A stretch of DNA of 60,567 nt from Circinaria calcarea. Lineage: Eukaryota. The position numbers and the translations under genes were made by a program. Shown here piece by piece: positions 1,907 through 38,256 of the stretch. The stretch spans positions 1 through 60,567 of the forward strand of contig JAVECS010000005.1 of the NCBI GenBank assembly GCA_051942165.1. Direction: 5' to 3'. The notes under the pieces are model-generated. The model saw only the letters and a list, made by a program, of their open reading frames with translations, did no database searches and was not told the DNA's origin. How positions within the stretch are numbered: position 1 is the stretch's first letter; every line of letters starts with the position of its first letter.

Positions 1907-4602
1907 TTAATGGCGCTTCATGATGAGCCTTTTCTCGGCCCTCACATCCTTCTTCAGTCGAGCGTCCACAATCTTATACTTCCCTTTAACTCCTCGCGGA
2001 CGACCTGAAATACCGCGATTCCCTCCTCGAGCTACCACGACCTTGACTTGTCTCCTTGGTTTCTTTTTCGCAGCTACGCTCATCATTTTGGCAATATTTT
2101 GGGCTTTATCCTTCTCAGTCATGCCTTCTTCACTTGCTAGTAAGGCTGATTTTTTTCGTAGCTTTTCTAACCTCTGCGCTGCTTTGAATTTCTTACGGTC
2201 TTTGGCTTCCCGAACCTTTTTAATCGGCCTTGCATTGAGAACCCGTAACTTCTCCTTGATTGCCGCTGCACCGGCTGCTGAGATAGGTCGATGTGGTTTA
2301 CTATGCCTACCCTCGTCGTCTAGGAACCAATCTGGTAGTCCATCACGGTCCTGGAATGCGTACTTATTGTAGGCCTCATCCATGACGTCTCGAGTTGACC
2401 TCTCTCTGGTTGCGATCTGCTGAGCAAGCGTCATGGCTTCTGCAGTAATCATATCGATATCTGCAAATGTCAGACACAGCTATGTGCGCGAAACAGTACA
2501 GTTTCCCACTGCGTACCTAGATGACCATCTTGCCTTGTTTCAGCCTGTCTTTCCCACTCACTACCACCTCCGTTCCGTACTACTTCGAAGCAAGTTTCGT
2601 CATCTCCCGCAAGATTGTCAGGATGCTGATTCAGGATTCCACTGGCTTGGCGCTCTGAACCCCCAATTACGGCTTGACTTAGCAAGGGGGCTTTGTGGTG
2701 TTTGGATTTGGGTCCAAGGATCTTCGATAACTGCTTTGAAGTCTGAGGTGCAACGCTAACGGATGCTTCCCCATCCATGTGTATGGCGCTATCGTCGTCA
2801 TTCACTGCTTCCATACCGTCAATGTCCCGAAATATGTCTTGATCAAAGAACGACGATGCTCGTTTGGTAAGGCCACTATTTGATAGAACCAATTGGTTAC
2901 GAGTATGAACAAGGGAAGACAGAATAGGGCGCGCTTCGTCTTCCGAGGAACTATTCTCGTCCTCATCTAGTTCATCGGAAGCGCTTTGTTCATTCTCGGA
3001 AAAGCCAGCCCAATCACCATCATCATGTTCTCGGTGGGCCTTCTTCGCTCGAGTTGTGGCGTCGGAGTCGGACTTCTTCTGTTGATATCGTTCATATAGT
3101 GATTCTAACTCCCTGTCTAACCGATCTTCTTCTTCATCTGTCTCGTCTTCAGAACTCGATGAATGTATCTCGTTGTGGACTTCGTCACTCAGAATCATTC
3201 CTCCTCGTGCTATTTGTTCGGTTGCTCCTGCCCTTTCAAGGGCACTTAATGCAAAAACAGAATCTTCGCCTTTCGGGCCGGCCTGCTCTAGGCCAATCTC
3301 CGTTGGAGGCATCATATGCATTTGCATTCTGAGAATTTCCCGCTGCTTTCGCTCATTTTCCTTTCTCCTATCGCGCTTTTTCCGCGATGTTTCATTTTGA
3401 GCGAGGGTGTGTAATTCTTCTTGAATCCGAAGCTCTTCATCCATCGGAGTCACTTCGGCCACCTCTTGACCCTCCACTTCCCGATCATGTCTCTTTTTAA
3501 GCCCAAACCCGAACTTCTCCCGTGCCTTAAGCCGCCATCTAAGTAGCGCACGGAATTCTTTACGGCCGAGGACCTTTAAATCACTACAACACTGGCGAAT
3601 CTCAATTGTAGTTTCAGGTAACTGCTCTAGTACGGTAAGTGCTATGTCGCCATTCTGGTTCTGATCGAAGCTCAGCCTGTTCAATGAACCAAGCATGGCG
3701 ATAGGATCGGTGGTCTGGATGAACTCGCTTGCAGCGGCTTCTTTGAATTGAGTATAGTTCCCTTCCTCATAGCCATCTCTCTTTCGCTTTTTCACCTCTG
3801 GGTTGAACACTTTAGCTTCGTTGTTTGGAGTAGGGTCAGCTAGCTCTGCAAAGACAGACCGAGGGTCGAGAAACTTAGGGTCAATGCGCTTAGGTGCCTT
3901 GAATCCCCGACATACAACGAATATCTCGGCTGAAACATTCCTGGATGATGGAGGCTTGGTGGATTCGACTTTGTTGAACAGTTGATTAAAGACCCACAAC
4001 AGCGCATTGTAGTCCTTCGACCTAAAGACCTTGGTAACAAAGGTACCACCCTCCATTAAAAACTCCGTAGCGAGCTTCATGGCTTGTAGCACCAGCTCAG
4101 CTTGCGAAAAAGCATCTTGCACCCATGCAGTACCTACGTTGGGTGCACCGTCGTGAAGAACCGTGTCAGCTTTCCAGGTCTTGAGATACTGCCGTATCAT
4201 AGCGCGGCATTTATCTGTCGTAATATCATTTTGGAAGGTGACAGTTCTTGGTATGGGTTTGATTGGAGCCAGATCCACACCCACAATTAAGCTACCGATA
4301 GGCATTGTCTCCGCCGCTACTTGACACCATGACTGCGATTGTAAATGTTTTGCCTCCATGAGCTCAAGGGAAACATACTCCTGGCGCGGCGCACAAATCC
4401 AACAAGACCTTGCTCTTCTCCAGAAAGTTGTACTTTCTGTTAAGCTGGATCAGCTTGAAGGCTGCCCTAGCCCGATAACCTTTCTCTTTTGCGAGCCTGT
4501 ACCATTTGTCAAGCCGGCCCTTACCATGCTGTCATCTAGTCAGCAACCGCTTGTGGGCACTGCATAAAGGTACGGAGAGCTTGCCTTCTTTTGCATACCC
4601 AT
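1907..4602 (-). CDS. SPB1: AdoMet-dependent 25S rRNA 2'-O-methyltransferase Spb1 (4 exons)
   Basis: [62 protein letters not shown]-terminal [11 protein letters not shown]...[12 protein letters not shown]; first intron is GC-AG (4584-4529). Confidence 0.96.
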
Positions 4603-4987
4603 TTTCACTTCGACCAGCCGCGATCAGGCTCGGTACGATCGCTGTATTATGTTTGAAGGGACTTTATTGAGAGAATAGATCTAGATAGACCTACGAAAAT
4701 AAACTTATCAAACGTACTGACGGCAAGATTTTCCTTCCGTCGCTTGAGGGTCGTAATAATACACCCGAGACACCGGTTCCGCCGGAGGAAAGAAGCCTTT
4801 CGGGCCGTGGGTGGCGGCGTCCGATAATTGGATAGATGTTCGCATCTTGAACTACTGTGGTAGAACACGACCACACATGACGCCTGGTCATCAATGAATG
4901 ATAGTGTACCACACTTTCAGTTGGCGTTAACTCCCGTAAAAGTATGACCTTGCTGTAGAAACCCTACTTTCTCTCATTCTCCCACTC

Positions 4988-7863
4988 ATGGGCCCTCGCA
5001 AGAAAGCAAAGCCAAATCCCAAGGCAGATGTTCAGCCTTCTCCAAATGCGCGTCAGCCATCGGCAGCAGCTATACCGCTACCTACAGATCGAGAGCCCGA
5101 ATCTGGGCTCAAGGAGGCTACAGGATGCCCTGATGGCCAGAATGGCTGTCCTGTCATTTCCACACCACCGAACGGTAGCAAGGGAACTGGTGCCAAACCA
5201 ATCGTCGCAGACTCCGGATCAGATATTGTCAAAACAACAGTGGAGAAAGACACAACCCGGGCAAGGAAGAGCTGGTACGGTGGAACGTGGCCTCGTATCC
5301 AAAAGGTAGCCCCTATCACACAGATTGCGAAGGAGAGTATTTCAGCTGCCACTGAAGTTGCCTCCGAGACTGTCGCATCTGCACGAAAGCTCACATCGCG
5401 AGAGACTGTAACCCCTGTCAGGTCGCCGTCGCTTCACTTATCGCAGAGCATGTCAAATCCTACTCGATCGCTACCACTTTCTGCGACCATAACCAAGGTA
5501 AATGCGTCCTCTAGCTTGCTGGGTCGGTCGCCCAATGAGAGTAATACAAAGTCACAAGACTCCCACAAAGCGGCGCCAAGTCTCCTTGATGGGAAGAGGC
5601 GAAATAGTCAAATTAAGGTCAGTGATGACTCCATCAAGTCCAGCGATCGGGTAGTACATGAAGTCAAGGACGCAACACCCGGTATATTAACGGCGGACAC
5701 CCAAAGTGTATCCTATGCACCATCCTTGGAAATTGCATCAAGTTGGCTTGGTTGGTTTTCTCGGGGCGAAAATACGCACAATCAGCCTCCTAATTCACTA
5801 GATGTGGTTGGAGGACCATCGGACAGCTATGAAGCTACAGAAGCTGAACCGATAAAACCTAATCCAAAGGATCGCGAACTCATAAGGAATACACGCCAAA
5901 GTTTACGCCGGAAATCAGATCCCAATCCCGTCGCTGCAGGGGCTCAGCCAAATCAGCAGCGGCGCTCTTGGATTGGCAGTTTTTGGGGCATTCCTGCTTC
6001 ATCAACCGAAGCCGGCAAAGTAGAAGATAGATGCGAGTCTATTTCGAATACCTTTTCAAGAAGCTCCGCAGGTTCAGATCTCCATTCAGCATATTCGTCG
6101 AACAATCTGAAGACCCTAACAAAAAGCCCTGGTGGGAAGATCCCCGAAGAAGCCAACACAGCGCTTTCCTCTGGCTGGGCTTTCTGGTCTCGTAGCGCTC
6201 AACAGACTAGCAACAAGGCTAACACTTTTGAACCGATTGTTGGTGAGCTAGCTGTTGCAGGATCTCCTTCACAGTCGAAGCCAGAGGATGCAACAGTTGA
6301 TAGGGTGAAGGGACTGCCTAAAGCTGCAGACAAAACCGGGAAAAGCATAAGACCGTCCTCCAGAGATGCCCAGGACCTTTCCAAGGAGTCAGACTCTATT
6401 ACAGCGAGGTCCAATAATGGTGTAGCTGTAGCAGCGTCCATTCCTGCTTCTTCAAAATTACCCAGGGCAGCGAGCTCTCAAACATCGCATGCTACGCGTA
6501 GTAATCTGTTACTCCCAGCCTTCAGACAGACATATCACGTCCACGAAAGTCCAGGGTTCTTCCAACAGCTTGGCCACTATCTGAACTACGGAAAGCTTCC
6601 CTTACCAAAACATGTTAGCTTAGTTCGAAATCCGCCAAGAATTAAGACTGCCCTTGCAATCGGCGTACATGGATATTTTCCTGCGCCCTTGATCCGGTCG
6701 GTACTTGGACAGCCCACGGGTACCTCTATTAAATTTGCAGAGTCAGCTGCAAACGCGATTCAACAATGGACCCAGGAACGTGGCTATTCTTGTAGTATTG
6801 AGAAGATAGCTTTGGAAGGGGAAGGAAAAATAGAAGAACGTGTTAAGCTCTTGTGGACACTGATCCTCAATTGGTTAGAAGACATCAGGAAAGCAGATTT
6901 AATTCTCGTTGCATGTCATTCCCAAGGTGTCCCTGTAGCTATGATGCTGATTTCAAAGCTCATCGCGCTCGGCTGCGTCAATGGAGCACGCATTGGTGTT
7001 TGTGCTATGGCAGGCGTAAACATGGGCCCCTTTGCATCTTACCAATCTCGCTGGATATCGGGTTCTGCGGGTGAGCTGTTTGACTTTGCGCGGCCTGATA
7101 GTAAGGTTTCGAAAGACTACGAAGCTGCCTTATCCACTGCATTGAGTTTCGGAGTCAGAGTAGTATATGTCGGCAGTATTGACGATCAACTAGTATCCCT
7201 CGAGGCATGTTGTTCAAATAGCACAATGCCCTAAGAGCAAGATACTGACTTCGTTGATCATTTATAGTCGTCTACATTTGGGGTTGCCAATCACCCTTAC
7301 ATCTATAGGGCTGTTTTTGTAGATGGCAGGATACACTCGCCTGACTTGTGCGTACCAGAAGTGGATTCAATACCTAGGTTTCCATAGATGCTGACATTAC
7401 GTTTAGTCTCACTCATTTAGTGGCATTTGCGTTGAAGCTTCGCAACCTCGGGGTATCTGACCATGGTCTCATAAGGGAGCTGAGTATCCCACTGTCAGGC
7501 TCACTGTTCTCGGGGGAAGGGCATTCCAGGATCTACGAAGACTCCGCGGTGTACTAGTGAGCGATATGCTCTGTTTGGGTATCCCTGGCTAACAGTAGCA
7601 GTCTAGCCGTGGAGTATGCTTTAGAGACTACATCTCTCGGTCAGGTAATCCCTTTACAGATGACCACAATCCCAAATACCGCCTCGCATAACCCTTACAT
7701 ACTCCCATTTGCTGCTCGGGGGGTAATCGAAGAACCGTACGTTAAAAATGAACTACACGATGAAACCGTCGAGCTGTTGAAACAATTCGACGACTGGAGA
7801 CCAACCAATAAACTACTGAAAGATGTCAAATTTCGGCTAGAGGGCGTTCGATCTAAACTATAG
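4988..7863 (+). CDS. YML020W-like conserved fungal protein (long disordered N-terminus, C-terminal alpha/beta-hydrolase-like domain)
   Basis: AIGVHGYFP, GQPTGTSIKFA, IALEGEGKIEER, ACHSQGVPV (nucleophile-elbow-like), GSIDDQLVSLE; continues through 3 introns to NPYILPF...WRPTNKLLKDVKFRLE. Confidence 0.85.
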
Positions 7864-16544: not shown

Positions 16545-17880
16545 CTACCGGCAGATTTGATTGTCTTTCAGCTCGCTTGGTGAAGAAGCTCCATCCGCCG
16601 GCGTGACTTGATCGCTAGAGGGCCTCCTTTGCCAATGTTCGAGCATTCCCTCTACCTCCGGACCCCATGTATCTTCTCCCTTGCTCAGCTGATCGTACGC
16701 CATGACATTTTTCCCCAGTTCAAAATCGCCTTGCCTTGTCCTTACCAACTCAGCCATGATCCCTAGTGAACCAAGGGCTTTCCCAAGGTCATGGCATAGC
16801 GACCGAACGTAGAAGCCTGACGTTACGGTCATTCGAAGCTTAACCGCTGGTGGACCTTTCTCTGATACTGGTAGGTGGCTAGAATCCTGTGCAGTCTGTG
16901 CATGCTCAGAAGGATTGAGTTGGGGGATCTCAATATCAGCCTCTTCAGGAGTCTGGAGGGCGCCAGACATGAGATACTCTCGACCATTTCCGCGTCGTTT
17001 CGAGGCCGGTTTTAGACCAAACTCAACTTCTTCTTCATTATCATCATCCATCATATTTTTCCTTTTTAATTCCTTGGAAGCATTCGGGGTAAGGGATGAT
17101 GTCAGGACTGGCTCCGATGAGCGAGGTTCTTGTGTTGCACTGGCGTTATCAAGTTGTAGTACTTTCGATGCAATTTCCTTCTCTTCCCGTTCAGCTTCTT
17201 TTGCCGGCCATTTATATTCATGACTCCCAGGACTTAGCCAGTCTAGCATCTCAAGCTCCTCGACCGTCACTGTCCTCTCCTGAATTTCCACTGGAACCTC
17301 TTTTCCTTCCCGCGCATATTCGTAGAGCCGTTTCCCTTGCACTCTCAACGCAGAATACAAAGGCGGTCTCTGCATTATTGTGCCTCTAAAATCCTTGAGT
17401 GCCTTCTCAACCTTCTCACGCGTCAATTGATTGTATGGCGCTCGACTGAGAATTCTCCCTTGCACATCGTACGTGTCTGTGGCCGCGCCAAAAAGTAGCA
17501 CCGCCTCGTAGGTTTTCGTGCATCCTAAGAAGTTTGGGAGATGCTTGGTTCCATTGCCTATACCGGCAATGAGTACCCCAGTGGCCAGGGGATCTAAAGT
17601 CCCCCCATGGCCTATTTTGACATCGATTCGTTTGTTCTTTCGTCTGTTCCTCTGATTTGCGTTCACTCTCTGGCGTTCAACTTTCTCAGCAGCCATCCAC
17701 GGCGCAAACAGATTGGAAGGGTTGAAGGCATGTTGTAGATCACGGACTACTTGGGCGGAAGTAATGCCTTTAGGCTTGTCAATCGCTGGCTTGCCGTCAG
17801 CAGTCACAAAAAGTCATTGGAGTCGTGCCTACTTGCCCGAACTCACCGAAGACACCCTCTACAATCTTTGCTTTTGACAT
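16545..17880 (-). CDS. PUS4: tRNA pseudouridine-55 synthase (TruB family, 2 exons)
   Basis: MSKAKIVEGVF|AIDKPKGITSAQV, KIGHGGTLDPLATGVL, QRPPLYSAL, SGFYVRSLCHDLG, LVRTRQG. Confidence 0.95.
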
Positions 17881-20100: not shown

Positions 20101-21440
20101 TCATGACTGCTTTGCTCTTCTACTCTTTCCAAAGCGCTGCGCACCCGTGTTTTGCCCTTTCATCTTCTTCGATGAAAAACCCCTGATATCACCACTTGAC
20201 GCTGCATCGCCACTCTTGGAATAACGCTTCTTCCCCCCGAAACCAAACTTCGCGTCCTTCTTTTGCCTTTTATTGGGTGTCCGCGCTGCAACGCCGGTTT
20301 GCCTTTTCTTCGCCGATCTATCCGTCTTGGTCTCGTTTTCCAAAGCCACATCGAACAAATCATCTTCTTGCACATTGCCGGTATCTGTATCCTTTCGTTC
20401 TAGAGTGCCGTATTAATCCATCTAATGTGTGCACTCGAGCACAAACGGGGGGAGAGACTTACTCCTTTTTAGAATGTTGATCTTATCCAAGGTATCCCTT
20501 TTTGCCTTATCCCTTTGCTGCAACTTCGCAACTTGGACCTGCTTCCCGAATTTCTTTAGGTCCCGCTGCCTCCTCGCTTCCGCTGCTGCCTTCTTGTTAG
20601 CTGCCTCGTCGGTCATCTTCAGCTTGATCTTCCCCATGTGCTCGTCCGACTTTACCATTTCCGCAAAGTAGTCTGCCGGTCTTGAAAACGGGATGCCTTC
20701 TTTCTTCAGTAAACCCCGGGCTTCCGTTGCAGCGTCCAGACATTGCTTGTGGAATGCGAGTTCACGACTGAGGTCGTCATTAACATCGGCTATCGAGATT
20801 TGGGTGGTCGAAGTGATACTCTGGTGTTCGGAAAAAGGAACGTTGTAAATGGGGAGAGCAATTGCTTTTTGAGCCTTGATAAGGGCGGACGTATTGTTAA
20901 TCGTTAGGCGTTGGTGAGGAATGATATCAGCTCTGTCATCGTCTGAGAGTTCTTCTAGGTCGGAAAGTGCGATATCGTCCTGGTCCAGACCTGAATTAGA
21001 CCCATGCTCACTTTCTGAACCCGAAACAGTGCCTTGAAGTTTCTTGTTTAAATTATCATTGGTAGAGATTGAACTATCGCTATCGTCAATGCGATCAATG
21101 TTTGACTGAGGCTTTACATCAGCCACAGTCTTGGACGAGCCCGCGGAAGCATTCATGGAAGTGGTTCAATACATGCTCTTTCACTCACAGCGGTAGGCGC
21201 ATCTTCGCTCTTGTCACTCTCCCATCCATCGCTCTCTTCTTCAGGTAATAGAGTTTCAGCGTTAAATTTTAACCTTGCTCCATGCTCGTCCCCGTCCTCG
21301 CCTTCCGGGGACTGGGGTGCTTGTTTGGCCATTTTCTTCTTCTTCTCCGCCTTCCTTTGTAAAGCCTTTTGCTTCTCAACTTTATAATTTCTTCCCTTAT
21401 GTGCATCTAGCGCAGTAAGCAGTTTGCTTTTCTTCGCCAT
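20101..21440 (-). CDS. EBP2: rRNA-processing protein Ebp2 (3 exons)
   Basis: DVNDDLSRELAFHKQ, PFSRPADYFAEMVKSDEHM, RDLKKFGKQVQ, KDAKFGFGGKKR. Confidence 0.95.
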
Positions 21441-22479: not shown

Positions 22480-23628
22480 TTATAACTCATCCTTCGATTC
22501 TCCCTTAGTCGAAAAACTTCTTAGGATATTAGACCGCGACGTAAGATCATCTACCTTCTCAGGCGCTAAACCACCCTTCTTAAGAAGACCCTGAAGTCTC
22601 GCCAATTCCTTATCCACGTAACCTTGGCTCTTACCCAATCGCTCGAAGACTTTTATGTAATACTCTGCATATTTATCTTTCAAGCCCGTAGCCGCTTTGA
22701 CAGCCTCTTCTGATACTGTAGCAAGGGTGCCACCCGCCACGAACTCGGATACAATAGTGTCCAGCGCCTCCACAGTACCGGCTTTTGCGTCAAGTCCACC
22801 CCCAACAGCCCGATGGGTTCCAGCATGCTCGTTAAGGAAATCGACAAAGTCTTTTTCCGATCGCCCACCCTCGTAAGCCTGCGGCGTGGTCGAACCTTTG
22901 GGGAAGTATTTGATGGTCGGATACGACTTTATACCTTGGGCTTCTGCGGTGGATTTGGAGTTGGCTGCTTCGGCATCCACCTTAGCGATGAGTACCGTAG
23001 GCTCAGCAGCAAAGTCTTGGGCTATAGTCTCCCATACCGGGGCGAGAGATTTGCAGTCTAGAGTCGAATAAGTTTACGGCAAATACAACTAGAAATTCAT
23101 ACCAGACTCACGTCCACACCAGGGGGCTGTAAAAGCCACCAGAACATCTTTCTCACCACCAACCTGTTGCTTGAAGGTCTTGTCGTTCAACAATTCAACA
23201 GCGCTGGGGGCGGCCTTCTTCGCTTTGGGTTTGAGCCCAGTCTTATCGGTTATCCACTTGGAAAGACTTTCGAGATCCCTACCCCCAGTATAGTCCATGG
23301 GCTTGTCGCTTTTACCGTCAAACCATTTCAACGTTGGGAAGCCTTGAACACCGAACTTCCGTCCTAGCTCTTTGTGGTTGTCTGCATCCACTTTGGCGAT
23401 AGAAACCTTGTCTTCGGCGAACGCAAAGTGTTGTGCCAGCTCCTCGTAGATGGGCGCGAGTGTTTTGCAGTGTCCGCACCATGGAGCGAAGAACTCCACC
23501 AACGCTGGCTTCCCGGAATTCAAGACCACTTGATCAAAATTACTAGGGATGAGATCTAAGACTGATGAGGCAGCATTAACACCAAGTACGGCAAGTGAGG
23601 ATAACAGAAGGTAGCTAAGTCGAGTCAT
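22480..23628 (-). CDS. tigA: Protein disulfide isomerase of the TigA/ERp38 type (two thioredoxin domains plus ERp29-like C-terminus)
   Basis: Signal peptide, FFAPWCGHCK and FTAPWCG|HCK (second one split by an intron), C-terminal KDEL. Confidence 0.93.
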
Positions 23629-24058
23629 GATGATCGGAGGTGAGGAAGTTGTGCCTGAAAACGGCGACTGCTGAAGGAATATGAGTAAGTTTGGAAAGAC
23701 ACCGGACCCCAGGTATGCGTAAGAATCCCTTCGGGAATACAGGAGACATAAGGCCAGACTGGTGGCAAATCACCGGTTGTATAGTTTCTCCGTACCCCGC
23801 GGGGATCCTCTCGATCAAATCAACCATATTTTTCAAATAAACGGCCTCTACAATTCAGTGCCATTATACTCTTAGTCTGTACTGCGCACGTTGTACAAGC
23901 AGCTTGACTTTGAGACCTAGGTGTCACGTCTAACACAGTACTCTTATCTCTGTTTGGGCGTATGATCAAGTTGAAATCACTACGGTAAAGGATTTCCGTT
24001 GCTTATTATAACCGTCACAGAGTGCGCTCTGTATCAGGAGTTTAGCTACATATAGATT

Positions 24059-25303
24059 ATGGACGCGGGAAAGACCATGTCTTCGCCTTTCCTAGGAAAT
24101 GTTGTTGAGATATGTATTGTCACCAATGACCACAAGCGTGTGGTCGATGGGTTGATCCGCCTCGGAATCGGTCCTTTCCAGATCTATGATTTCAATGCTT
24201 CCTCCGTCTCTTCCCAAAAGTACTTTGGTCAATCCGCATCTTCGGAATTGAAGGTTTGCTTCGCAACTGCGGGTTCGGTGGTTTGGGAGATTATGCAACC
24301 TGTCTCTGGTCCCTCAATAATGGCCGATTTCCTCGAGTCGCATGGCGAGGGCATCCATCATGTTGCGTTTGACTGTGATCATATGCCGGTCCAAGAGCGG
24401 AAACATGAGTTCTTGAAGAGAGGCTTCCAATTAGCTCAAGAAGGTGTTTGGCATGGCAAGAAAGGCACATGCCATTTCACGTTCTATGATACGGAGGGAG
24501 CGACGAGCATGTGCTTCGAGTCGTACGACTTCTCTCCTGACTGGGAGTTCCCAGCCGATACAGTATGGTATCCCGCCCCACCCACCAAAGTACCAATGTC
24601 AACATCAACGGCAGCGTCGGCCGTCCCCACACAGACCGCCAGTCCACCCCTTTTTGCAGCCCTTGATCCGGGCACGACTGGTGTTCTTACAGCCCGTAGA
24701 GGCAAACCCCTCCCACTCAAGCAGGGCCAGTTCCTGAAAATCATCAATACTCACGGCAAGCAAGTCATTGACTTCTTCGCCTTTGGCCTCAGTTCTGATA
24801 TGCGACCCCTTCCGCCCGATTCCACCGAGTATCTCTCGATGCAACACACGCGGGCCATGAACCTCCGTACAATTCCAAAATCAGGAGATATATTATACAG
24901 CAACCGTCGCAAACCTATGCTCAAGCTGGTGGGAGATTCATCGCCAGGGGTACACGATACGCTCATCCCAGCTTGCGATGCAAAGCGGTACGAACTGCTA
25001 GGCGTAACAGACTATCACGAGTCATGCTCGGAGAACCTGCACGTTGCACTATCTGAAATGAAGTTTCAATTTCCGAAGTATGTTACGCCTGCTCCGTTCA
25101 ACCTGTTCATGAACGTTCCCGTGGGTAAAGATGGCAGCATGTCATTTCAAGAGCCCGAAAGCAAGGGGGGCAATTATGTAGTCTTTGAGGCGATAGAGAA
25201 TTGTGTTGCTGTGATGAGCGCTTGTCCTCAGGACATCACTCCCGTAAACGGGTTAATCCCCATGGATTGTCATTATGAGATATCGTACTGGAAGGAGGAC
25301 TGA
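24059..25303 (+). CDS. Intronless two-domain protein: VOC/glyoxalase (methylmalonyl-CoA epimerase-like) domain plus DUF1989 (urea carboxylase-associated) domain
   Basis: N-half: VVEICIV..LGIGPF..WEIMQPVSGPSIMADFLESHGEGIHHVAFD; Pro/Thr/Ser linker; C-half: GKQVIDFFAF, LSMQHTR, GDILYSNRRKPML, HDTLIPAC, HESCSENL, PFNLFMNVPV, MSACPQD. Confidence 0.85.
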   Translation: MDAGKTMSSPFLGNVVEICIVTNDHKRVVDGLIRLGIGPFQIYDFNASSVSSQKYFGQSASSELKVCFATAGSVVWEIMQPVSGPSIMADFLESHGEGIHHVAFDCDHMPVQERKHEFLKRGFQLAQEGVWHGKKGTCHFTFYDTEGATSMCFESYDFSPDWEFPADTVWYPAPPTKVPMSTSTAASAVPTQTASPPLFAALDPGTTGVLTARRGKPLPLKQGQFLKIINTHGKQVIDFFAFGLSSDMRPLPPDSTEYLSMQHTRAMNLRTIPKSGDILYSNRRKPMLKLVGDSSPGVHDTLIPACDAKRYELLGVTDYHESCSENLHVALSEMKFQFPKYVTPAPFNLFMNVPVGKDGSMSFQEPESKGGNYVVFEAIENCVAVMSACPQDITPVNGLIPMDCHYEISYWKED

Positions 25304-25819: not shown

Positions 25820-26837
25820 ATGTCCTTCAACACAGAGACCACTTTGGATTCAGCGGCACAGCATCAGGCATCCACCGAACCTAGACTTGCCCAACAAGAA
25901 ACCGAGCTTGCAACCCACCCGAAAGATGTACAGAGAGGCTCTACAGCCGAGCCCACAACCGAGCCTACAACCGATTCTACCACCGGAGACAGCAAGTTGG
26001 CTACACTTACCGAGTCTGCCAGCAATGCGGCCGCTGCGATGAAGGATAACGTTTTCTCGATGTTTGGCGGTGGGGCAAAGAAGGAGAAAAAGCCCGAGCC
26101 CGAAGATGATGTCAATGAGCCTTCGGGTTCATCGAAAGCTAAGAAGGATGTTGAAGATGCTGAGGTGAGATTGATACTCTGAGAGCCCTTTGCTCACTCA
26201 CCATGCACAAACTAACCTTGGCGGCTGCCTTAAAGGAGGAAGCGCCGGATTCTCCCGAAGTCCACTTTGAGCCTGTTGTGCATCTGACCGAGAAGGTCGA
26301 GACGAAGACGAACGAGGAGTCGGAAGAGCAGACCTTCAAGATGCGTGCCAAACTCTTCAAGTTCGACCGTGAAAGCAGGGAATGGAAAGAGCGTGGGACG
26401 GGAGACGTGAGGCTTCTAAAGCACAAGGAAAACGGCAAGACAAGACTGGTCATGAGAAGGGACAAGACCTTGAAGGTTTGCGCCAATCATTATGGTATGG
26501 CTGTGGATTTTGGGCTTCACTTTGGTTACGTACTTATAAGATGGCAGTGGTACCGGATATGAAGCTATCACCAAACGTTGGCAGTGACAGAAGCTGGGTT
26601 TGGAATGCGGCAGCGGATGTTAGTGAAGGGGAGCCAGAGCCATGCACACTTGCTATTCGTTTCGCCAATAGCGACAGTATGTATCTACGAAATCCAAAAA
26701 TCCAAGGCATACACGTCATGCTAACAAAACCTGTAGACGCCAATCACTTTAAGGAGGCTTTCATCAAAGCACAGCAGGAGAACGAAGCTCTTTTCAGCCA
26801 AGACGCAGAGAGTGGGCAACCAAAGGAGGAAGCTTGA
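25820..26837 (+). CDS. YRB1: Ran-binding protein 1 (RanBD), 4 exons
   Basis: [76 protein letters not shown]. Confidence 0.96.
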
Positions 26838-28947: not shown

Positions 28948-29229
28948 CCTGGGACCAGCGCTCACATAGATCGTCCTCTCTTCTGCTCTTCCTCCATCAC
29001 ATCTATAACCTCGTCGTTCACTTCTTTCCACGGTCTGCTACCTTAAGAGTACTCTCCTATAACCATCACCGCTCTTACAAGCACTTCTCCATCCAACGCT
29101 GGCCACTTGACGTACTACTCCTTGTACAGCTCGCCATTGATAGCTCTTGTTCTACAGCCCTTGTCCTTCACTCCTCGTCTTCGGCGCCTTTTTTGCTTCC
29201 AATTCGAAGAAGGTCCACTTTGCAGAGCA

Positions 29230-30327
29230 ATGTCTTCTAACTCCTCTTCCTCCTCCTCCTCTGTTTTTTCGTCCCCTTCTTCTTCGGACCACCACCGAGA
29301 ACCTCCCTCTGCTACTGCTCACCACGACCACCAAGCCACTGTTGCACCTCCCACCCATGGGCCTGACCAAGCTCCGGCCGCCATGGCTCCCTCCCTCGAA
29401 AACCGTCAGGTCCCGGCTGTTCCTCTCCACCATGATCACCACCAGGCTTCATCTCTTACCCCTCATGATGACCGTACTGAGTACGGTCAGTCCGCTGGGC
29501 TTGCACCCTTGAACGCGCCTAATGCCCTAAACGACTCTGACGAAACGGAAGAGGGAGAGGATCATCCCACAGCCCCCGCGCTTTCCGGCCTAAGGGCCTC
29601 TGTCGGCCCTCAATTTTCAAACCCTCAGCTTCTAGCTGACGTGCGGGCCGATGTGGGCCGAATGATGGCGATGGAAGACCAGATTGCCGGCCTCGAGGAT
29701 GATGTAGAGGATCTCCAAAAGAAGCTCGATGATGAAAGGGATGCAAGGGAGGAAGAAAAAGCACGGCTGGAGCAGCAAAACGAGACCCTGCTGATGACCT
29801 TGGAAAGTGAAAGGGTCGAAAGGAGAATCGAGAGGGACGCAGAGAAATCGGAGAAAGCCCGCCTTGAGAAAGAGAGAGATGAGGCCCGTGAGGCGCTCGC
29901 ACGTCGTAAGGAATCCCTCCCCTCCGTCTTCTTTTCCTCCGATTCTTTTCCTTCTCGGTCGAGACACTTGACCTTGCCCAATCCACTTACCATCCTGCCT
30001 CGTTCCCTGCTTTTCCGTCTCCAAGACTTGGCCCAAAGTACACGTTCAACGCCGACGCATGCTAATTGCTCATTGCTAGACCTTGCTGCCGCTGCTACCC
30101 CCGCCCAAGTCCGCGCTGCCAACGCTCGAGCCGCCCTCAAGCGAAAGAGGGAAGCCGCCGCTGCTACCGTCAACGACGAAGAAGGCGAAGATCCTGCCGC
30201 TGGGACTCAGGGCTGCAAGAAGCGCACCAAGCGCGCTGTGAACGAGACTGCCGCCAAGGGGAGGAGCAAGCGCGGGGAGGAGCCACCCCACAAGGGTTTA
30301 TCCGAGGGGAGGAAGACGAGAAAGTAG
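29230..30327 (+). CDS. Orphan protein: Ser/Pro/His-rich N-terminus, charged coiled coil, basic C-terminus (probable intron 29906-30079)
   Basis: Long open frame; IAGLEDDVEDLQKKLDDERDAREEEKARLE coiled coil; GTAAGG donor, GCTAAT branch and TAG acceptor around a pyrimidine-rich segment; KRKR and KKRTKR NLS-like motifs. Confidence 0.7.
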   Translation: MSSNSSSSSSSVFSSPSSSDHHREPPSATAHHDHQATVAPPTHGPDQAPAAMAPSLENRQVPAVPLHHDHHQASSLTPHDDRTEYGQSAGLAPLNAPNALNDSDETEEGEDHPTAPALSGLRASVGPQFSNPQLLADVRADVGRMMAMEDQIAGLEDDVEDLQKKLDDERDAREEEKARLEQQNETLLMTLESERVERRIERDAEKSEKARLEKERDEAREALARRKESLPSVFFSSDSFPSRSRHLTLPNPLTILPRSLLFRLQDLAQSTRSTPTHANCSLLDLAAAATPAQVRAANARAALKRKREAAAATVNDEEGEDPAAGTQGCKKRTKRAVNETAAKGRSKRGEEPPHKGLSEGRKTRK

Positions 30328-31250: not shown

Positions 31251-32228
31251 TTAGAAGAGAACTCTGTGTCTGCGGCTGGTGTCAGCGTCTAGCTCCTCAG
31301 GTATAGGATGTCACGACATACTGCAGCAGCAACCATTCCAAACTCGAAGCACTCATATCTCGTCCGGAAGGTATCTCATCGATCAGGGACACGAGATTCG
31401 CAATCAACTCGCTACCCTTATACGCAAGTATCGCGGGGACAACGGCCACGTCCATCTCAGCTTCTCGATAGGCGAGCTTGACAAAACGGGTGGTTTCGTG
31501 TTTCCGAGCGAGGTTTGAGAGAGCGTCTTCTACGATGGCACTGACTGCCGACTGCCGCGAGAAGTTAGTGACGATGCTACAGGAAAGCAAAAGTTTAGGT
31601 CACCCACCTCCTCGTCATATATGCATACCACCACGACCGTATCTGAGGCCACCTTCTCCACGGCATCGAGATATCCAATTGCATCCACCATGGAAACATA
31701 GCCGTATCTCCGCTTGCTGGGGCTTTGTCGCCTCGTTCGACGATCCTGCCCGCCCGACTGCATCTCAATTATTCGTTTGGCTCTCCACTCCCGCATGAAA
31801 TCGTCCTCGTCATCGTCGGCGGAGCTGTCCGTACTCGGGCTACCTTCTCTTCGGGCTGAGGGCAAGGAGATTTTCTGCTTTTCGAGAACCGTGCCGGCGA
31901 GACCGTTGGAGAAAGCGTAAAGAGACTGTCGGAAGCCACGTTTTCTGGCCCGGTCAAAAGACTTTGCGTCGGCAATGACACCTTTGGGCCCAGTATTTGC
32001 ATCAAAGGTCGTCCCGTTGGGGATGTGATATATAGAGGAAGGCATGGGGTTGGAATGATTGATCGCGGTCTCGTCCTCGCCGTCACTGTCACGGGCCTTG
32101 GTTTCGATGTCAGAGGAGGGCTCGGAAGTGTCGGCGCTGGTGGAAGCGTCTTCGGGATGGGAAGTGCGAGCGTGGCGGTCTTGATTCGCGATGAGGGTGT
32201 CAAATTCGTCCTGGGCAGCAGTAGCCAT
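31251..32228 (-). CDS. phnA: Phosducin-like protein (PhLP1 class, PhnA/BDM-1 type), 3 exons
   Basis: ANTGPKGVIADA (G-beta-gamma-binding motif), FMREWRAKRIIEM, YLDAVEK, thioredoxin-like RFVKL..VPAILAYKGSELIANL. Confidence 0.92.
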
Positions 32229-34573
32229 GGTAAAAGGAGAAGGGCTTTGTAAGAGAGTAATATCGAAAGCCGCCAAGGGGTGAGTCTGGGGATGTTTGCT
32301 TTTCTTGTTTCGGATTTTGGCGGTGAGAGGAGTTCCACAATCGCGACGGCTGCTGGAGACAGAATGCGGTGGTTGCTGGAACGTCGGCGGGGGACGAGTC
32401 GTCCGGATGGGCCGTTTCAATGGAGAGGGGATGAGTGAGGGATGTATAAAGGGATTGATAGGATCTCTCGATTCCCTCGCTATGCGATCACTGGCCGAGA
32501 AGGGGCGAAGTCGGAATGTGTGGCGGGGCCAGTGCCGAGTTGGCGAGGATGTTGTTTTGTTTTGCCACGAGGCCTCTCCAGAGTGTGCCAGTATTCGACG
32601 AGAAGACAATCTCGGGCCCAACGTGGCCGTCAGGGATAATGCATGGTCGACCCCTGCGGCAGATCCTGGTGATGGCCTGAAACGATCCTTCCCATGGGCC
32701 GTGTTGGAGGACCGCCTGCACGGAGAAGAATATCGAGCACGTCAGGCAGGACTCTCCCGCACATCTGCTTTCGGGACGCGACCGGTTGCGCCTGAAGTCA
32801 AACATGCGACTTGGTGAGGAGACGGAGACCCGGTGGCAATGCGTGTTTGCAGCTGAACGTCGTCGTTGTTGTTGTCGAGGTGTTGTGGTGTTGTAATTGG
32901 TGTTGCAATATTTGTTGTTCCTCCTCCGCTTAATCAGAAGGAACCATACGGACTCCAGTGCTTCCGGCGCAACTACAGTAGGAATCTCTCAAGGGGAGAC
33001 ATGAGGTCGCACTGTGGGATATGATGCTCACGTGGCACTCTGATGCATCCTGGCCGCTTTCTCCTACCCTGACTTATCTGTCACCCTTGATGCATTCGGG
33101 GAAGCCTTCTATGAAGTACGCTCGGCTTCCCTGCATTAAATACTGTACTGGTATGCACCCACACGTGCTCTCTTCGGCTTCGACCCTGGACATGCCCAAA
33201 CAGTGGTGAGACGGCGCAACCCCTGCACGAGAACCCTTTTCTTTGCAAATGATCTTGCCCCAACCTTCCCACGTGCCACTATCCGAGGGAAGCTTTGCAC
33301 TCTCTCAACTCCCTACCTTATACATAGAGGCTATCGACGCCGACCAACACCGCTTACGCGTTGATTTCCCGTCTGCCCTAGAGCATTATCAATCACGTCT
33401 GGACTGAAGCCAGACGAGCGAGTGGGATGGAGATCGACATCATCGAGCTGGGCAGTAGTACACCACTCGCGGGAGACCGTCCGTACGCCAGGGAGAAATC
33501 TGCTGACTGGTGTCTACATTCACGCGTGCTGCTACATTCCATCACTTGTTTGCAGTACAGCCCGAGGGACTAGAAGGTTTTCAATTGTCTGTTTGCTCCA
33601 CACAAGAAACAGCCCAACGGCAAAGCCCTCTGATGAACGCTACCATTGACAACTCTACCGGTCCCCGGGACCGATCAAGCTTATCGGTCCGCATCAAAGT
33701 GGTCGGATACCAAACCGCAGGTGGTAGTTTTGACCTGCTGCAATCCCCCCTCATACATAGCAGGAATTTGGTACCAGAACAGGAAAGGGTTCGCAAGGGG
33801 AAGAGAATAGCGCCAATGCTTCGACGGAAAAACATGTATTCCAGTGACAATTGCCGGCTAGTGTCGCTCATGATAACAGCACCGTAACATTCAACCGTAC
33901 ATACAAGGGCTAGTGTAAAAGAGCTGTACCGCGCCATCATCGGTTGGACCGTCGATGAAAGGATCGCATCTTGAGCACAATCTGTCTTAGTATCTAGAGA
34001 CGTGCTTAACCTTATTAGTTGTTGAAGAGAACTGTACAGAATAGTGCTTGAACGCAACGTCCACGATGTCTAGCTGACCGGAAAGATGTTCGTAGAGTGC
34101 TTTGTCAACTTGTTTGTCGGAAATTAGGTCAGCTTGGCGGTATGTTGCGCAGTAGGAGGCTTTTGACAAGGATCGAGAGTGCTGAACACTCGGCATTGCT
34201 GGGACAGTCTCATCACGCGAGACGTGTGACAGAATAAGAAAGACACAATATGGAACCTAATCTCCCACATCCATGCACCACCGCCAAGTAGCTGATACGG
34301 CAGTAGAACCTTTGGCAGTTACCGAAATGTCAGAATTATGATGAAAAGGAAGTGCAAGGCCAAATCGAACACCGAAGAGCGCCAGTGAATACTTTCATTT
34401 CGTCGTATTTCCTCGTTTTCCCACGAGTACCAAATAAAGAGTTTGCGAGAATCCGGATCAATTCGAAGAGGGGGAGTGGTCGAACACATGGATCTCTGAA
34501 TCAGATACCATAGGGTGAAAGCTTCATTTGTTCCGAACTTTGACATTCACTTCCACGAATCTGCTTAACGACA

Positions 34574-36300
34574 TTACCACGCCCAAACCTTGAGCTACAA
34601 CGGCGGGATATAAGTCAGCCACCTACTGTTAAGGACATGTCCGATACATATCGCTCATGCAGATCCTCGGAAAACTTACAAAAGAGTCCCAAGATCCGGT
34701 GCACAAGCTGATTCCATCATTACTGACCCCTAAACAGCTTACGCGATTCACGTGGCCATTTAGACTACCAATTCGCTCGCCGCGAAGGACGTCCCACACC
34801 TGTCCGATAGGAGTCACTGTTAGTCTGCTAGCTATTCTGGTATAACCGTCCAGGGTGAACAGAAGCCTGTCGGCCCTAAAGAGACCAGCGCGCGAGTTGA
34901 CATACCTTGCATTCAAAGTCGTCGTATCCTGCGAATAATAATCGACCTGATACCGAGAATCCTACCGATGTAATGCCACAGAGGACTTGTTCGCTCTGCG
35001 TCTCAAGTGTATGTTAGCTGATCAGTGTCCAATATGTCTAACGGCAAATGCAAAAAGTAGACCAAGTACATGCAGCAAAGAATGAGCATCAGTTCAGGAC
35101 ATGCTGTGATTGAATAGGGAGAAGAAATTAGAGCTTCGTTGTGAGAGGCATAGCAATGAATATATTCCCAAATGTCATCCGCACGGAGATGAGGTACTCA
35201 GATTCACGCTACAGTCTGCAAGACAGACTCTCAAGCATGCTAAGTATAATGGTTACCAGGCTTCCAACCCGTATAGGCCAAAGCGAAAGAAATAGCGCTA
35301 GGAAAAATAATCATCGCCATGCTCCTTTTGAGAGAGGTGCGTAGGGAGAAAAAGTAGAATCAGACAGCTTACCGAGTACTGATTGACTTCACGATCAGCG
35401 CGAATGTCGAATAGACGGCAAGAAGCGTCGTCAGACCCGGTCCCAAAGGCATTACCGTCAGGAAAAAACTGAATAGCATTGATATCCGACTCATGACCTG
35501 CAAAGGTCTGCACGGCTTTACCGGTCCGGATATCCCAAAGCTTCGCAAACGCATCGCAAGCACCGGAGACAAAAACATTTTGGTTGGTCGGATTGATGCT
35601 AATACTCATGACATCTCCAAGATGATCAGCGAACTCTGTGACCTTGGAACCACTTTCAACATCCCATAGCATGCAGGTCATATCACCAGAGGAGGTTAGG
35701 ATACGGCGATCGTTGATGAATCGACAGCAAGAGAGATAACCGGAGTGGCCCGAAAGCTCACGAGCCACGCGGGTTGGACCATCGCGAGAGGAGAGATTGT
35801 ACACGGAGCAGATGTTGTCAAGGCCACCACACGCTACGTAATTGCCACTGGGAGCATAGGCGCAAGTCATGACCCAGGAAGAGCGAAGAGGTATTGCGTG
35901 TACCTTGTTGGTGGTGTAGGCATCCCATATGATGAGCTTTCCATCTTGAGACGCAGACACCAGGTGACGCCGATCCGTGGACCAGTGCATAGCATATATC
36001 TTTGCCAGATGACCTTTAAGTATGCGACGTGTTTTCATTCCGATCCTAGGTAGAGCATCGGTATTACTCTGAGCAACGCCGCGCACTGGACAGATCTTTG
36101 TTAGCCTTGCCGAGTTTCGAAGAGATTGAGAGCGATAACCTGGGAAAGCATAGGAGGGCAGACCAAGCCAGCCGGGACTTACGAGTAATATCTGCAAGAT
36201 CGTCCTTCTTACGTTTGATTTTGTCCTTGAGGCCTTCGGCGTCGCGCCTCGCAGCGGCAATCTTTGCCTGCATCTGCTCTCCGGAGATCTCATTCGCCAT
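34574..36300 (-). CDS. sfaD: Heterotrimeric G-protein beta subunit (SfaD/Gpb1 type), 5 exons
   Basis: [60 protein letters not shown], ending LKVWAW*. Confidence 0.97.
35084..35324 (-). ncRNA. Candidate intronic box C/D snoRNA-like RNA (~240 nt) in the long G-beta intron
   Basis: Sense strand: GAGCA-TG-GCGATGA (C) ... CTGA (D')-GTAC-loop-GTGC-GGATGA (C') ... CTGA (D)-TGCTC; the terminal stem extends imperfectly; host intron is ~375 nt versus ~55 nt typical. Confidence 0.55.
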
Positions 36301-38256
36301 CGCACCAGGCTCCGCTATTTGAGCGCCGATGTATTCTGAGTTCAAAGCCGTTTCGAGTCTTCGATTGCAACGTGTAACTTGATGCGAAGGTTAGGGGAAG
36401 AGACTGAGTGCTGCGTGCGTAAGACCAAGCTGGAACGGATACCTCTCGAAGCGAGTGGAGAGATTCTCAAGGAGTAGTTAAGAAAGCATCGATTCGGTCT
36501 TGCTGCTCACACATTCAGGCAGGTATGTGATGATTGACGTCGATTATGGGTATGTAGTGATGGTGTGGTTGGAGGTTTGTGACTACTGCCGACCTTCAGA
36601 CCTTGTGGAACAATGTTTTTACGGAAGCGAAATGAGACGGGGCGCAGTAACATTGCGGCCGCTACGGAACTGAACGGTGCTTACGGAGTACCAGTAGGTA
36701 TTTCTAATAATGGTTTGAGATGGGACATGGAGTGCCTGAGGCCGAGACTCTCCAAAAAGTTGGATTACTTAGGTCCCTTTGAGTCTTTCAAGGAGTCCTT
36801 TAGAGCCTTGGAGTATGGAGCACTACTACCTGCTCTTCCAAGTATACGGAGTAATAACGGACCACTCGCATGAACGGTCGCCTCACGTGACTTTGCACTC
36901 CGGAGAATGGTACCCTTGCGCAACAGGGCTGTCGCACTAACACCGCTCCGTCACGGTCAGGCAGAGCCTTCGAGTATTGCACAGGAGCCCAAGGTGTCAG
37001 CTGTACCGGAGAGCGCACTGTAGCACTGAAGGGACTTGGGCTTCGAGCAAAGCAGTCTACCAGACTAAGGAAACACTCCCTGTTCTCTTATGCACGCTCT
37101 CCTCAAGCTAGACCTACATGGTGCAAGTTTTCTGTCGAGGCGGGTGAGCAAATGTCGTTGCCGAAAATAGATAACAATATGATACTGGAGACCTCCCACA
37201 CAGGAACCACATTTTGTTGGACAACACAAGATGTTGGACGTATACTACGTAGTGGAAGTCCGGTTTACAAAGGTTTGATCTATAGACAATGAGAACGAGG
37301 GCAACCTCCATTACACTGATTGTCTTTCATCAGCACCGGCTTTTGCACACCAGCCTCGTGTGATTCTTTTCTAGCACAAGTAGTGACAGCCCCGTCCGGA
37401 AAAGCCGCATCAAAGAAACTGATGCAAACAAGGCAGGGAAGCATATGCACACCAAGTTAACTGTAATATACTGTAGCACACACAAGGACCTCCATTAGTT
37501 TGCAACAAGGATCAGTCGCTCACTTTGTTAACACAGGAGAGTGGTTAATTTCAAAACAGTGTACTGTTAGCTAAGGTAAGGTAAACTAATTATTGGCCCC
37601 AGTCCTGAGCACTAAATAGAATATTACGCGGGCGGAAATGCCCCCCCGGACTCCATCTCTTCTTTCTTCATCGCCAACAACGTAGATATTCTCGTTTCCG
37701 ATCGTGAACTCCGAGTCCCGCATCGAATTTGTCCTGGATTCAGCTTCTACTCGAGTATCTTTGGGACTTGGTGAGAAAAATCTCACTGCTCGCTGCTTGC
37801 TGCTCGCGTACGGATTTGTTCATCCGAACTTTTGAACAGAAGCAAACGTCTTTACGATCATCAATCAACGCGCTACAGTCATCAAAGAGGACTCTGGACG
37901 GTATAGCAGCGACTGAAGAGATATCTTGGGTAAACCTTCGATCTATTGTAGGGTCCGTTGGCACAGTTCTCCAGCGACTTCCACCTCCCTGCGACAGCAG
38001 ACACGGTCAGGAAGTTCTTGTCGAAATACAGCGCTTGTTACCATTTCGATTGATATTCATACCAATCTCCATAGTCTTCTCACTATCGCAAACCGACCTT
38101 CAATATTAAGGGATTACTCCGAGGCCCAGTGGGCGCAGCCCTCCCAGGAAACACAGACCCTGCATAGTGAGCAAAATCCTCGTGAAACCTGTTATGGCTT
38201 TGGCTAATTGGAGTCTATCATAGCAGTTCTCTGCAGCTATTTCCGCCACCTGCAGA

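Follow-up and report, generated by a model that had tools for sequence, protein, structure and literature searches.

The fused gene and its two domains

The stretch of DNA analysed here, the window, comprises 60,567 nucleotides of Circinaria calcarea (GenBank assembly GCA_051942165.1, contig JAVECS010000005.1, positions 1 to 60,567). It contains a plus-strand gene, at 24059..25303, whose product joins a vicinal-oxygen-chelate (VOC) domain to a DUF1989 domain through a linker. This architecture is rare and, as far as searched, undescribed: two known superfamilies are combined here in a new way, which does not make the protein a new kind of system. Comparative sequence evidence gives, in our judgement, somewhat better than an even chance that the protein is a functionally coupled two-step (bifunctional) enzyme of small guanidino/ureido-type nitrogen catabolism. 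The ATG-to-stop frame was open throughout in the list of open reading frames (ORFs) and in translation, without a frame shift or internal stop. Orthologues begin near Met7 (24077), which makes it an alternative start. Translation, Pfam and the predicted structure agree on one 414-residue ORF with two complete domains, as proposed in a sequence-only reading of this DNA. Every motif quoted there was found: VEICIV (residues 16–21), LGIGP (35–39), WEIMQP (76–81), IHHVAF (99–104), CFES (152–155), QVID (235–238), HDTL (299–302), PAC (304–306), SC (322–323) and SACPQD (387–392).

The features of the gene are listed below; residues of the C-terminal domain are matched to those of the demethylase Tdm (9Q59/9Q5A).

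24059..25303, plus strand: whole gene, VOC–linker–DUF1989; single-exon ORF of 414 aa, coordinates including the stop
24092..24571, plus strand: VOC (Glyoxalase_4) domain, residues ~12–171; PF13669, strands and helices at residues 15–171 with a predicted local distance difference test score (pLDDT) above 90, and a match to 3gm5
24107..24109, plus strand: Glu17 in strand beta1, candidate first metal ligand by alignment (3gm5 has Gln there); invariant in the fusions
24287..24289, plus strand: Glu77, candidate second metal ligand, aligned with Q60 of the S. coelicolor methylmalonyl-CoA epimerase; invariant in the fusions
24356..24361, plus strand: His100-His101 (GIHHVAF), with His101 the candidate third ligand, aligned with the second His of the epimerase GxHHIAF motif (6wf6 chain position 84); invariant
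24518..24520, plus strand: Glu154 (CFES), candidate fourth metal ligand or catalytic base, aligned to the conserved terminal Glu of 3oa4; invariant, role putative
24578..24649, plus strand: interdomain linker, rich in Pro, Ser, Thr and Ala, residues 174–197, PPTKVPMSTSTAASAVPTQTASPP; delimited by position, pLDDT and gapped, unconserved alignment columns
24644..25300, plus strand: DUF1989 domain of the 3ORU type, residues 196–414; PF09347, 3oru and 3siy
24953..24958, plus strand: His299-Asp300 (HDT motif), probable active-site pair by alignment; invariant in the fusions, role putative
24974..24976, plus strand: Cys306, candidate first zinc cysteine (= Tdm C263), from HMMER alignment to 9q59 and PMC12560246; invariant
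25016..25027, plus strand: His320...Cys323 (YHESC), with Cys323 the candidate second zinc cysteine (= Tdm C279) and His320 = Tdm H276, by the same alignment
25223..25234, plus strand: Cys389-Pro-Gln-Asp392 (SACPQD), with Cys389 the candidate third zinc cysteine (= Tdm C343) and Asp392 = Tdm D346, by the same alignment

The N-terminal half matched Glyoxalase_4 (PF13669) over residues 18–142 with 47 bits against a gathering cut-off of 27 (E 3.5e-12), and its model shows the paired beta-alpha-beta-beta-beta fold of the VOC superfamily. Foldseek placed it closest to 3GM5, a 'putative methylmalonyl-CoA epimerase' of Thermoanaerobacter (template-modelling (TM) score 0.81), followed by further epimerases and HPPD-type dioxygenases; phmmer also matched 3gm5 (E 4.7e-11). 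The four candidate ligand positions are held by Glu17, Glu77, His101 and Glu154, with putative ligand roles assigned by analogy. The subfamily has the signature PFLGxxVEIxIV...GIGP.

Residues 210–382 matched DUF1989 (PF09347) with 146.7 bits against a cut-off of 27 (E 6.6e-43), covering profile positions 3–167 of 168; both Pfam scores lie well outside what chance would give. The closest solved relative of this half is 3oru (phmmer E 5.4e-47, residues 201–398), and Foldseek superposed it on 3SIY/3ORU with a TM score of 0.83 and a root-mean-square deviation of 1.7 A over 210 columns at 40% identity, placing it in the DUF1989 fold; the model pLDDT of this domain is above 90. Tdm was the second-best solved relative (E 7e-17). 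According to PMC12560246, DUF1989 domains bind zinc through three cysteines (C263, C279 and C343 of Tdm; also 3SIY, 3ORU and 3DI4), and H276 and D346 of Tdm are proposed for a second metal. By alignment, the zinc cysteines correspond to Cys306, Cys323 and Cys389 of the window protein, which are invariant in nine fusions. Both modules look catalytically competent because all candidate ligands of both domains are invariant in these nine proteins, which are 46–82% identical to the window protein.

AlphaFold2, run with a 73-row alignment, returned two well-folded domains (mean pLDDT 91.4, predicted TM score (pTM) 0.65), with pLDDT below 50 only at residues 178–193. The linker spans 24 residues, and its length and sequence vary among orthologues. 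Full-length orthologues at 62–82% identity retain both domains and the linker position. The ESM Atlas gave no usable match to the fusion protein.

The gene is unsplit while both of its flanking genes, the two covered by this comparison, are visibly split, in keeping with the sequence-only reading. The PDI/tigA-like gene on the minus strand falls into two frames (22480–23073 and 23089–23769), and the RanBP1/YRB1-like gene on the plus strand into at least three ORF pieces (25820–26837). No second copy of either domain was found in the 60.6-kb window. The surrounding features are:

16545–17810, minus strand: TruB-type pseudouridine synthase gene (Pfam)
20422–21162, minus strand: Ebp2 gene (Pfam)
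22480–23628, minus strand: PDI gene with two thioredoxin domains and an ERp29 C-domain (Pfam)
23629..24058, no strand: intergenic stretch of 430 bp between the fusion gene and the divergent PDI/tigA-like gene, from ORF positions; presumed bidirectional promoter region
25820–26837, plus strand: RanBP1 gene (Pfam)
35298–36311, minus strand: G-protein beta gene (Pfam)

Two further long ORFs, at 29047–30324 (plus) and 31530–32738 (minus), had no Pfam match.

Distribution and origin of the architecture

A word-indexed search of 5.8 billion clusters (proteins of 227–725 aa) gave 257 matches, 120 of them listed. A profile search covered 1.84 billion representatives of any length, and its best 150 were considered. 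Among the word-search matches listed, both Pfam domains occur in at least 11 clusters other than the query (P0002–5, P0007, P0008, P0011–13, P0015 and P0016), and P0006, P0009, P0010 and P0014 begin inside the VOC domain and are thus N-truncated fusion models. Two of the best 150 representatives in the profile search spanned both domains (P0121, 397 aa, and P0009). About 16 clusters at 90% identity carry the VOC–DUF1989 architecture; they come from independent assemblies and are ~43–82% identical to the window protein. Fusions of identifiable origin are all fungal, mostly from lichen-forming Lecanoromycetes. Named carriers, both in this class, are Lignoscripta atroalba (Trapeliales) and a cluster with Varicellaria rhodocarpa (Pertusariales). 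No description of the architecture was found in papers on DUF1989, urea carboxylase-associated proteins or creatininase; database names were uninformative, and architecture tables lay outside the scope of the search. No paper on DUF1989 in fungi was among those found. The fusion is thus real and rare on these clusters, and the earlier remark that no characterised protein has this architecture agrees with the literature searched.

No bacterial VOC–DUF1989 fusion was found among 79 GTDB loci. Four matches of ~1.2 kb occurred in those loci. Three of them, when opened (L014, L064 and L076), proved to be tandem DUF1989 paralogues, and the fourth, L017, gave two DUF1989 matches and no VOC match by tblastn. 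The tandem pairs (L014:5992-7253, L064:5953-7147, L076:5851-7143) consist of differing paralogues with no carboxylase nearby. The L014 pair comes after an arginase-family gene, and the L064 pair lies between two Rieske oxygenases. Two DUF1989 matches each were also seen in L018, L045 and L074, as in L017.

The fusions fall into three groups by identity to the window protein: the lichen-type fusions of clade A (54–82%), clade B (P0011–13 and P0015, 44–46%) and clade C (P0016 and P0121, 41–43%). Clade B is inferred to be fungal because its closest DUF1989 relative, at locus L080, shares a contig with an intron-containing amidase and NACHT/TPR-type genes. This stand-alone gene (L080:2911-3582, plus strand) is 72–78% identical to the fused forms and keeps a remnant of the linker, and the preceding 1.2 kb hold no VOC sequence. 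It is convergent with the amidase gene (3848-5568, minus strand) and stands between the NACHT/TPR-type genes. Judged from sequence, L080 and the related P0401 look like cases of recent loss, or lack, of the VOC half.

Odd gene models also occur in clade A. Five models from metagenome-assembled genomes of Teloschistales (P0017, P0018 and P0020–P0022; Seirophora, Caloplaca, Teloschistes, Usnochroma and Ikaeria) carry the clade-A DUF1989 domain from the linker on, without VOC, and continue into a HIT (Hnt1-like) domain; P0018 reads through the usual C-terminus DCHYEI. P0008, which is a true VOC–DUF1989 fusion, falls in the same group of the DUF1989 tree. The missing VOC and added HIT may be gene-model errors, not biology. 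Such DUF1989–HIT models, together with the N-truncated fusions and a predicted structure that gave no defined interdomain arrangement (pTM 0.65), could be taken to mean that the fusion itself is an assembly or gene-model artefact, or a chance juxtaposition without functional coupling. We consider this barely credible: the ORF is uninterrupted in the window DNA, and both domains are conserved at 43–82% identity across ~16 clusters from independent assemblies, apparently with more than one origin.

The two halves were placed in trees by 'quick' IQ-TREE searches of 58 VOC and 66 DUF1989 rows. In the VOC tree, clade A was nested among stand-alone fungal VOCs, in a clade with 100% support; clade B grouped with Exophiala (support 86), and clade C with bacterial rows that include VOC fusions to RidA and to Old-Yellow-Enzyme-type (OYE) modules (support 87). 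A constrained tree in which all 12 fused VOC rows form a single clade was worse by 116 log-likelihood (lnL) units (P value of the approximately unbiased test (p-AU) 4.3e-7). In the DUF1989 tree, all fungal rows formed one group (support 92), sister (support 91) to a proteobacterial group including Pseudomonas, Rhizobium and Bradyrhizobium rows. Holding the 35 fungal rows as one clade was as good as the free tree (p-AU 0.54). Clade A, with the Teloschistales models, was 100% supported, and clade B and L080 joined Rhinocladiella (support 92). Rhinocladiella and Exophiala belong to the same fungal order. Since the fused VOC domains do not form one clade, two or more fusion events involving separate fungal genes are the most likely history; a possible alternative is a single ancient fusion that later underwent fissions or exchanged domains.

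Nearest relatives of the stand-alone VOC type are fungal proteins of 170–215 aa at 60–74% identity (Oculimacula, Rhynchosporium, Rhexocercosporidium, Mollisia, Fusarium, Trichoderma, Clonostachys, Periconia and Aulographum). Bacterial VOC relatives reach ~50–55% identity to the window VOC. This bears on the suggestion, made in the sequence-only reading, that one or both domains derive from horizontal transfer. Recent acquisition from bacteria would account for the intronless state, given introns in both flanking genes, and the proteobacterial sister group of the fungal DUF1989 clade and the level of bacterial VOC identity fit such a source. The composition of the gene is native, however: GC is 0.509, GC at third codon positions (GC3) is 0.558 and the relative synonymous codon usage (RSCU) distance is 0.097, none of which falls outside the values of ten other coding stretches in the window. 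The VOC half sits inside a fungal clade, the fungal DUF1989 rows can form one clade, and the nearest relatives of the protein are fungal at 62–82% identity. Recent transfer is therefore extremely unlikely, and that part of the reading is dropped. On its sequence, the fusion gene is best read as a genuine, vertically inherited fungal gene, with Lecanoromycetes that form lichens as its closest named relatives, and any bacterial origin of the domains would be ancient.

Bacterial relatives and their gene neighbourhoods

The idea that bacterial homologues of the two domains might be gene neighbours was borne out in two genera. When each domain was searched by tblastn, both genes lay within 6 kb in seven of the 79 GTDB loci, six from Pseudomonas (L008, L009, L016, L019, L020 and L046) and one from Rhizobium sp. 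(L011). The Pseudomonas corrugata/mediterranea/jessenii cluster holds the closest bacterial relatives of both domains (~48% and 52–54% identity) within ~6 kb; unlike in the fusion, the two genes are separate, with ~5 kb between them, and probably belong to different transcription units. The order in P. corrugata is LysR, DUF1989, LysR, amidase and a flavodoxin-like reductase (opposite strand), NCS1 permease, VOC and creatininase. An MFS carrier, a second creatininase-family gene and an aldehyde dehydrogenase lie beyond. The creatininase of this cluster passes its equivalog cut-off (TIGR04448, 378 bits against 235). Searches on creatininase and creatinase found no paper describing the cluster. 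In Rhizobium, VOC directly follows the NCS1 permease, and DUF1989 lies 2.8 kb upstream on the other strand. Three ORFs there (L011:3446-3922, 3981-4454 and 6578-7234; 158, 157 and 218 aa) matched nothing in Pfam or NCBIfam; these could be additional pathway components, or not genes.

The VOC subfamily is sparse, with members in seven of 401 sampled alphaproteobacterial genomes at E<=1e-30. Its earlier description as widespread in bacteria was thus overstated, though named matches come from several phyla.

Neighbours of DUF1989 were scanned over two ORFs on each side in 53 bacterial and metagenomic loci, with ORFs called by a crude longest-ORF rule. Eight loci had a guanidino/ureido hydrolase within this distance. 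Creatinase (Peptidase_M24 plus Creatinase_N) was directly upstream of DUF1989 in three loci, with the order creatininase, creatinase, DUF1989 at L003:3122-6579 and creatinase, DUF1989, Rieske oxygenase at L026:4743-7473. In the third (L027:3696-6567), a DJ-1/AraC (GATR) regulator is divergent from the creatinase–DUF1989 pair; this arrangement seems to resemble cahR-creA as given in bioRxiv 10.1101/2021.11.02.466972, so that the regulator would be CahR-like. Arginase-family genes adjoin DUF1989 in L014, L049, L091 and L097. Two of these, both metagenome contigs (L091:6337-10949 and L097:6939-10919), share the order ABC importer, DUF1989, Peptidase_M20, arginase-family gene. An allantoicase and an amidohydrolase were near DUF1989 in L002, and an amidase in L050, L065 and beside the fungal L080 copy. 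No biotin carboxylase or YqcI/YcgG gene was seen within two ORFs of DUF1989 in the 53 loci. DUF1989 matches at ~52% identity were also present in metagenome loci L095, L096, L098–L101, L106, L107 and L109.

As a lead from these contexts and from the other fusions of the domain, the common theme appears to be uptake and hydrolysis of small nitrogen-rich compounds. Creatinine or creatine would be the most concrete substrate lead, short of a demonstration.

Known families and a proposed two-step enzyme

Each half comes from a large family, and in both families the members most like the fusion protein are without an assigned activity. The 3ORU-type DUF1989 structure, available since 2010, is given no function in its record or in the literature searched, and the VOC subfamily is labelled 'methylmalonyl-CoA epimerase' by automatic annotation only. 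The protein behind 3ORU and 3SIY, TM1040_0329 of Silicibacter/Ruegeria sp. TM1040, has the HDT, AC, xC and CPxD motifs in common with the window DUF1989. It is a stand-alone bacterial protein of ~230 aa without VOC, and the match names a fold, not an activity.

The epimerase label was carried into the sequence-only reading as 'methylmalonyl-CoA epimerase-like'. This holds for the fold (the 3gm5 superposition described above) and fails for family membership. The family model TIGR03081 gave 29.3 bits against 114.95, over residues 61–136 only, and Glu17 in VEICIV occupies the beta1 first-ligand position, where classical epimerases have His (His12 in the Propionibacterium enzyme). Membership was rejected on these two grounds. 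The window VOC shares the GxGxHHxAF and terminal Glu motifs with the epimerases and 3GM5, but it has its own signature and no sign of a CoA substrate. Its stand-alone fungal relatives (Oculimacula yallundae, Rhynchosporium secalis, Fusarium, Trichoderma and Clonostachys) are alike over the whole VOC domain and differ in having no DUF1989; their epimerase name is likewise automatic.

Carboxyguanidine deiminase CgdAB, with which the sequence-only reading had linked the DUF1989 half, is the next candidate. Schneider and colleagues reportedly described it (2020, Biochemistry 59:3258) as two paralogues encoded together, beside genes for urea/guanidine (biotin) carboxylase and allophanate hydrolase. 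An orthologue of CgdAB acting downstream of such a carboxylase would share PF09347 with the window protein and the broad guanidino-nitrogen release theme of its relatives' neighbours, and the best NCBIfam small-protein match is indeed TIGR03424 (UAAP2). Yet both curated cut-offs were far off (TIGR03424, 82.9 bits against 284.7, E 2.2e-23; TIGR03425, 37.9 against 205.95). CgdAB (UAAP1/UAAP2) is a two-paralogue heteromer, whereas the window protein has one DUF1989 domain, with no second copy in the window and no heteromeric pair. No carboxylase or allophanate hydrolase was seen among the larger window ORFs between 14 and 36 kb, nor a carboxylase within two ORFs of the 53 relatives, and among solved structures the nearest is 3ORU, a stand-alone protein. 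Membership of the CgdAB family was accordingly rejected, and orthology is very unlikely. By analogy, the fusion protein may work like a CgdAB-type deiminase on another substrate.

Tdm offers a different chemistry, in which a Tdm-like N-demethylase DUF1989 would cleave an N-oxide, N-hydroxy or N-methyl compound with release of an aldehyde, and VOC would handle the product. All five Tdm positions described in PMC12560246 (the Cys3 zinc site and the His/Asp pair, H276 and D346) are kept in the window protein, the last two as His320 and Asp392. Tdm's rank as second-best solved relative and the aldehyde dehydrogenase of the Pseudomonas cluster also fit. But the Tdm model NF053776 gave 113 bits against a cut-off of 1100, and the protein is far closer to 3ORU. 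According to the same source, Tdm has ~790 aa with extra DUF1989-like and GCV_T domains; Pfam found no GCV_T in the window protein. Membership of Tdm was rejected on the cut-off and the missing domain, and we regard an activity of this kind as decidedly improbable.

A coupled two-step enzyme is the reading we prefer. That both domains act in one pathway is argued from the apparently repeated fusion and from the presence of both genes in bacterial clusters. Repeated fusion, with bacterial clusters beside a true creatininase, makes a Rosetta-stone-type argument for joint action. The guanidino/ureido type of substrate is proposed because relatives adjoin creatininase, creatinase, arginase-family, allantoicase and amidase genes. 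The core of the earlier proposal, a single pathway of guanidino-type nitrogen catabolism, is thus plausible and gains support of an independent kind; its CgdAB link did not hold. We suggest that the breakdown of a small guanidino/ureido compound, possibly creatinine- or creatine-like, would include two adjacent steps, one on each of the VOC and DUF1989 modules. The DUF1989 module could carry out zinc-dependent C–N cleavage of a guanidino, amidino or ureido group (deiminase-, amidine- or demethylase-like), using the Cys3 zinc site and perhaps a second metal at His320/Asp392. This step is proposed by analogy with the CgdAB deiminase and with the Tdm demethylase of PMC12560246. The Glu/Glu/His/Glu site of VOC may act on the intermediate before or after this step, by proton transfer, isomerisation, ring opening or lyase chemistry. 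Fusion would give equal dosage and proximity of both activities. The proposal narrows the substrate search to a short list of guanidino/ureido compounds, testable by simple ammonia or urea release. If true, it would give functions to two orphan subfamilies and a nitrogen-scavenging enzyme to lichen-forming fungi.

The concentration of the fusion in lichen-forming fungi would also suit an enzyme of lichen secondary metabolism or self-protection, unrelated to nitrogen nutrition, with VOC as a resistance protein, isomerase or dioxygenase and DUF1989 as a tailoring or detoxifying module. VOC proteins include resistance proteins and ring-cleaving dioxygenases, Foldseek lists HPPD structures, one of them a usnic-acid complex, and other VOC fusions join RidA and OYE modules. 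Against this, no biosynthetic genes flank the fusion gene in the window, stand-alone relatives of both domains are common in non-lichen fungi and bacteria, and the bacterial contexts are catabolic or transport-related. We consider such a role unlikely, while leaving it some weight.

Several observations count against a coupled two-step enzyme of repeated origin. At the locus itself there is no catabolic cluster; among neighbouring ORFs of >=150 aa between 14 and 36 kb, those with a Pfam match belong to housekeeping genes (TruB, Ebp2, PDI, RanBP1 and G-beta), and the others have no such match. A single clade of all fusion lineages is compatible with the DUF1989 data (p-AU 0.18), both trees came from quick searches, and the groups compared by the AU test were named after the tree was seen. 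Clade C may be fungal or bacterial. Stand-alone DUF1989 of the clade B type occurs in fungi (L080; P0401, 30 members), so that the module can stand alone. In bacteria, 45 of the 53 DUF1989 neighbourhoods had no guanidino/ureido hydrolase within two ORFs as crudely called, and linkage of the two genes is confined to Pseudomonas and Rhizobium. A linked 3ORU-type DUF1989 was not found in six other alphaproteobacterial carriers, whose VOC is more distant (40–45% identity). One of the six has a DUF1989 copy ~380 kb away, three have weak matches only (E 6e-17 to 2e-20) and two have none; the weak matches lie in open frames of 716–801 aa that are taken, on sequence, as Tdm-like. No recurrent VOC neighbour was seen in seven regions from six alphaproteobacterial genomes together with L075 and L125, and these neighbourhoods were heterogeneous.

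A wider extension of the coupled-enzyme proposal is that the fusion and the NCS1 permease–VOC–creatininase/DUF1989 clusters point to a route as yet undescribed, with two enzymes acting on cyclic or N-methylated guanidino compounds of the creatinine/creatine type. Such a route would be shared by soil bacteria and ascomycetes, and its one-protein form in lichen fungi would give the mycobiont nitrogen from animal excreta. We hold this to be distinctly unlikely as a whole. PMC12623156 mentions a creatinine-to-methylguanidine branch without assigned genes, which may be a candidate for the route.

Both domains occur with other partners. A DUF1989 of the same type is joined to an NCS1 permease (P0187, 651 aa, Logan contig) and, in several ascomycetes (Hyphodiscus, Rhizodiscina and Zalaria), to a polysaccharide deacetylase (PF01522/PF10096; P0033, P0043, P0052, P0117 and P0128). 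Further fusions are to a PCC domain (PF03479) in Thermoleophilia (P0430 and P0451) and to Peptidase_M48 (P0491). The same VOC subfamily, at ~50% identity, is fused to RidA/YjgF (PF01042) in P0025 (338 aa) and to an Old-Yellow-Enzyme-type FMN oxidoreductase (PF00724) in Sphingomonas (P0030 / L075:1189-3366, 559–726 aa). The RidA and OYE partners are a hint that this VOC operates near enamine/imine or activated C=C chemistry.

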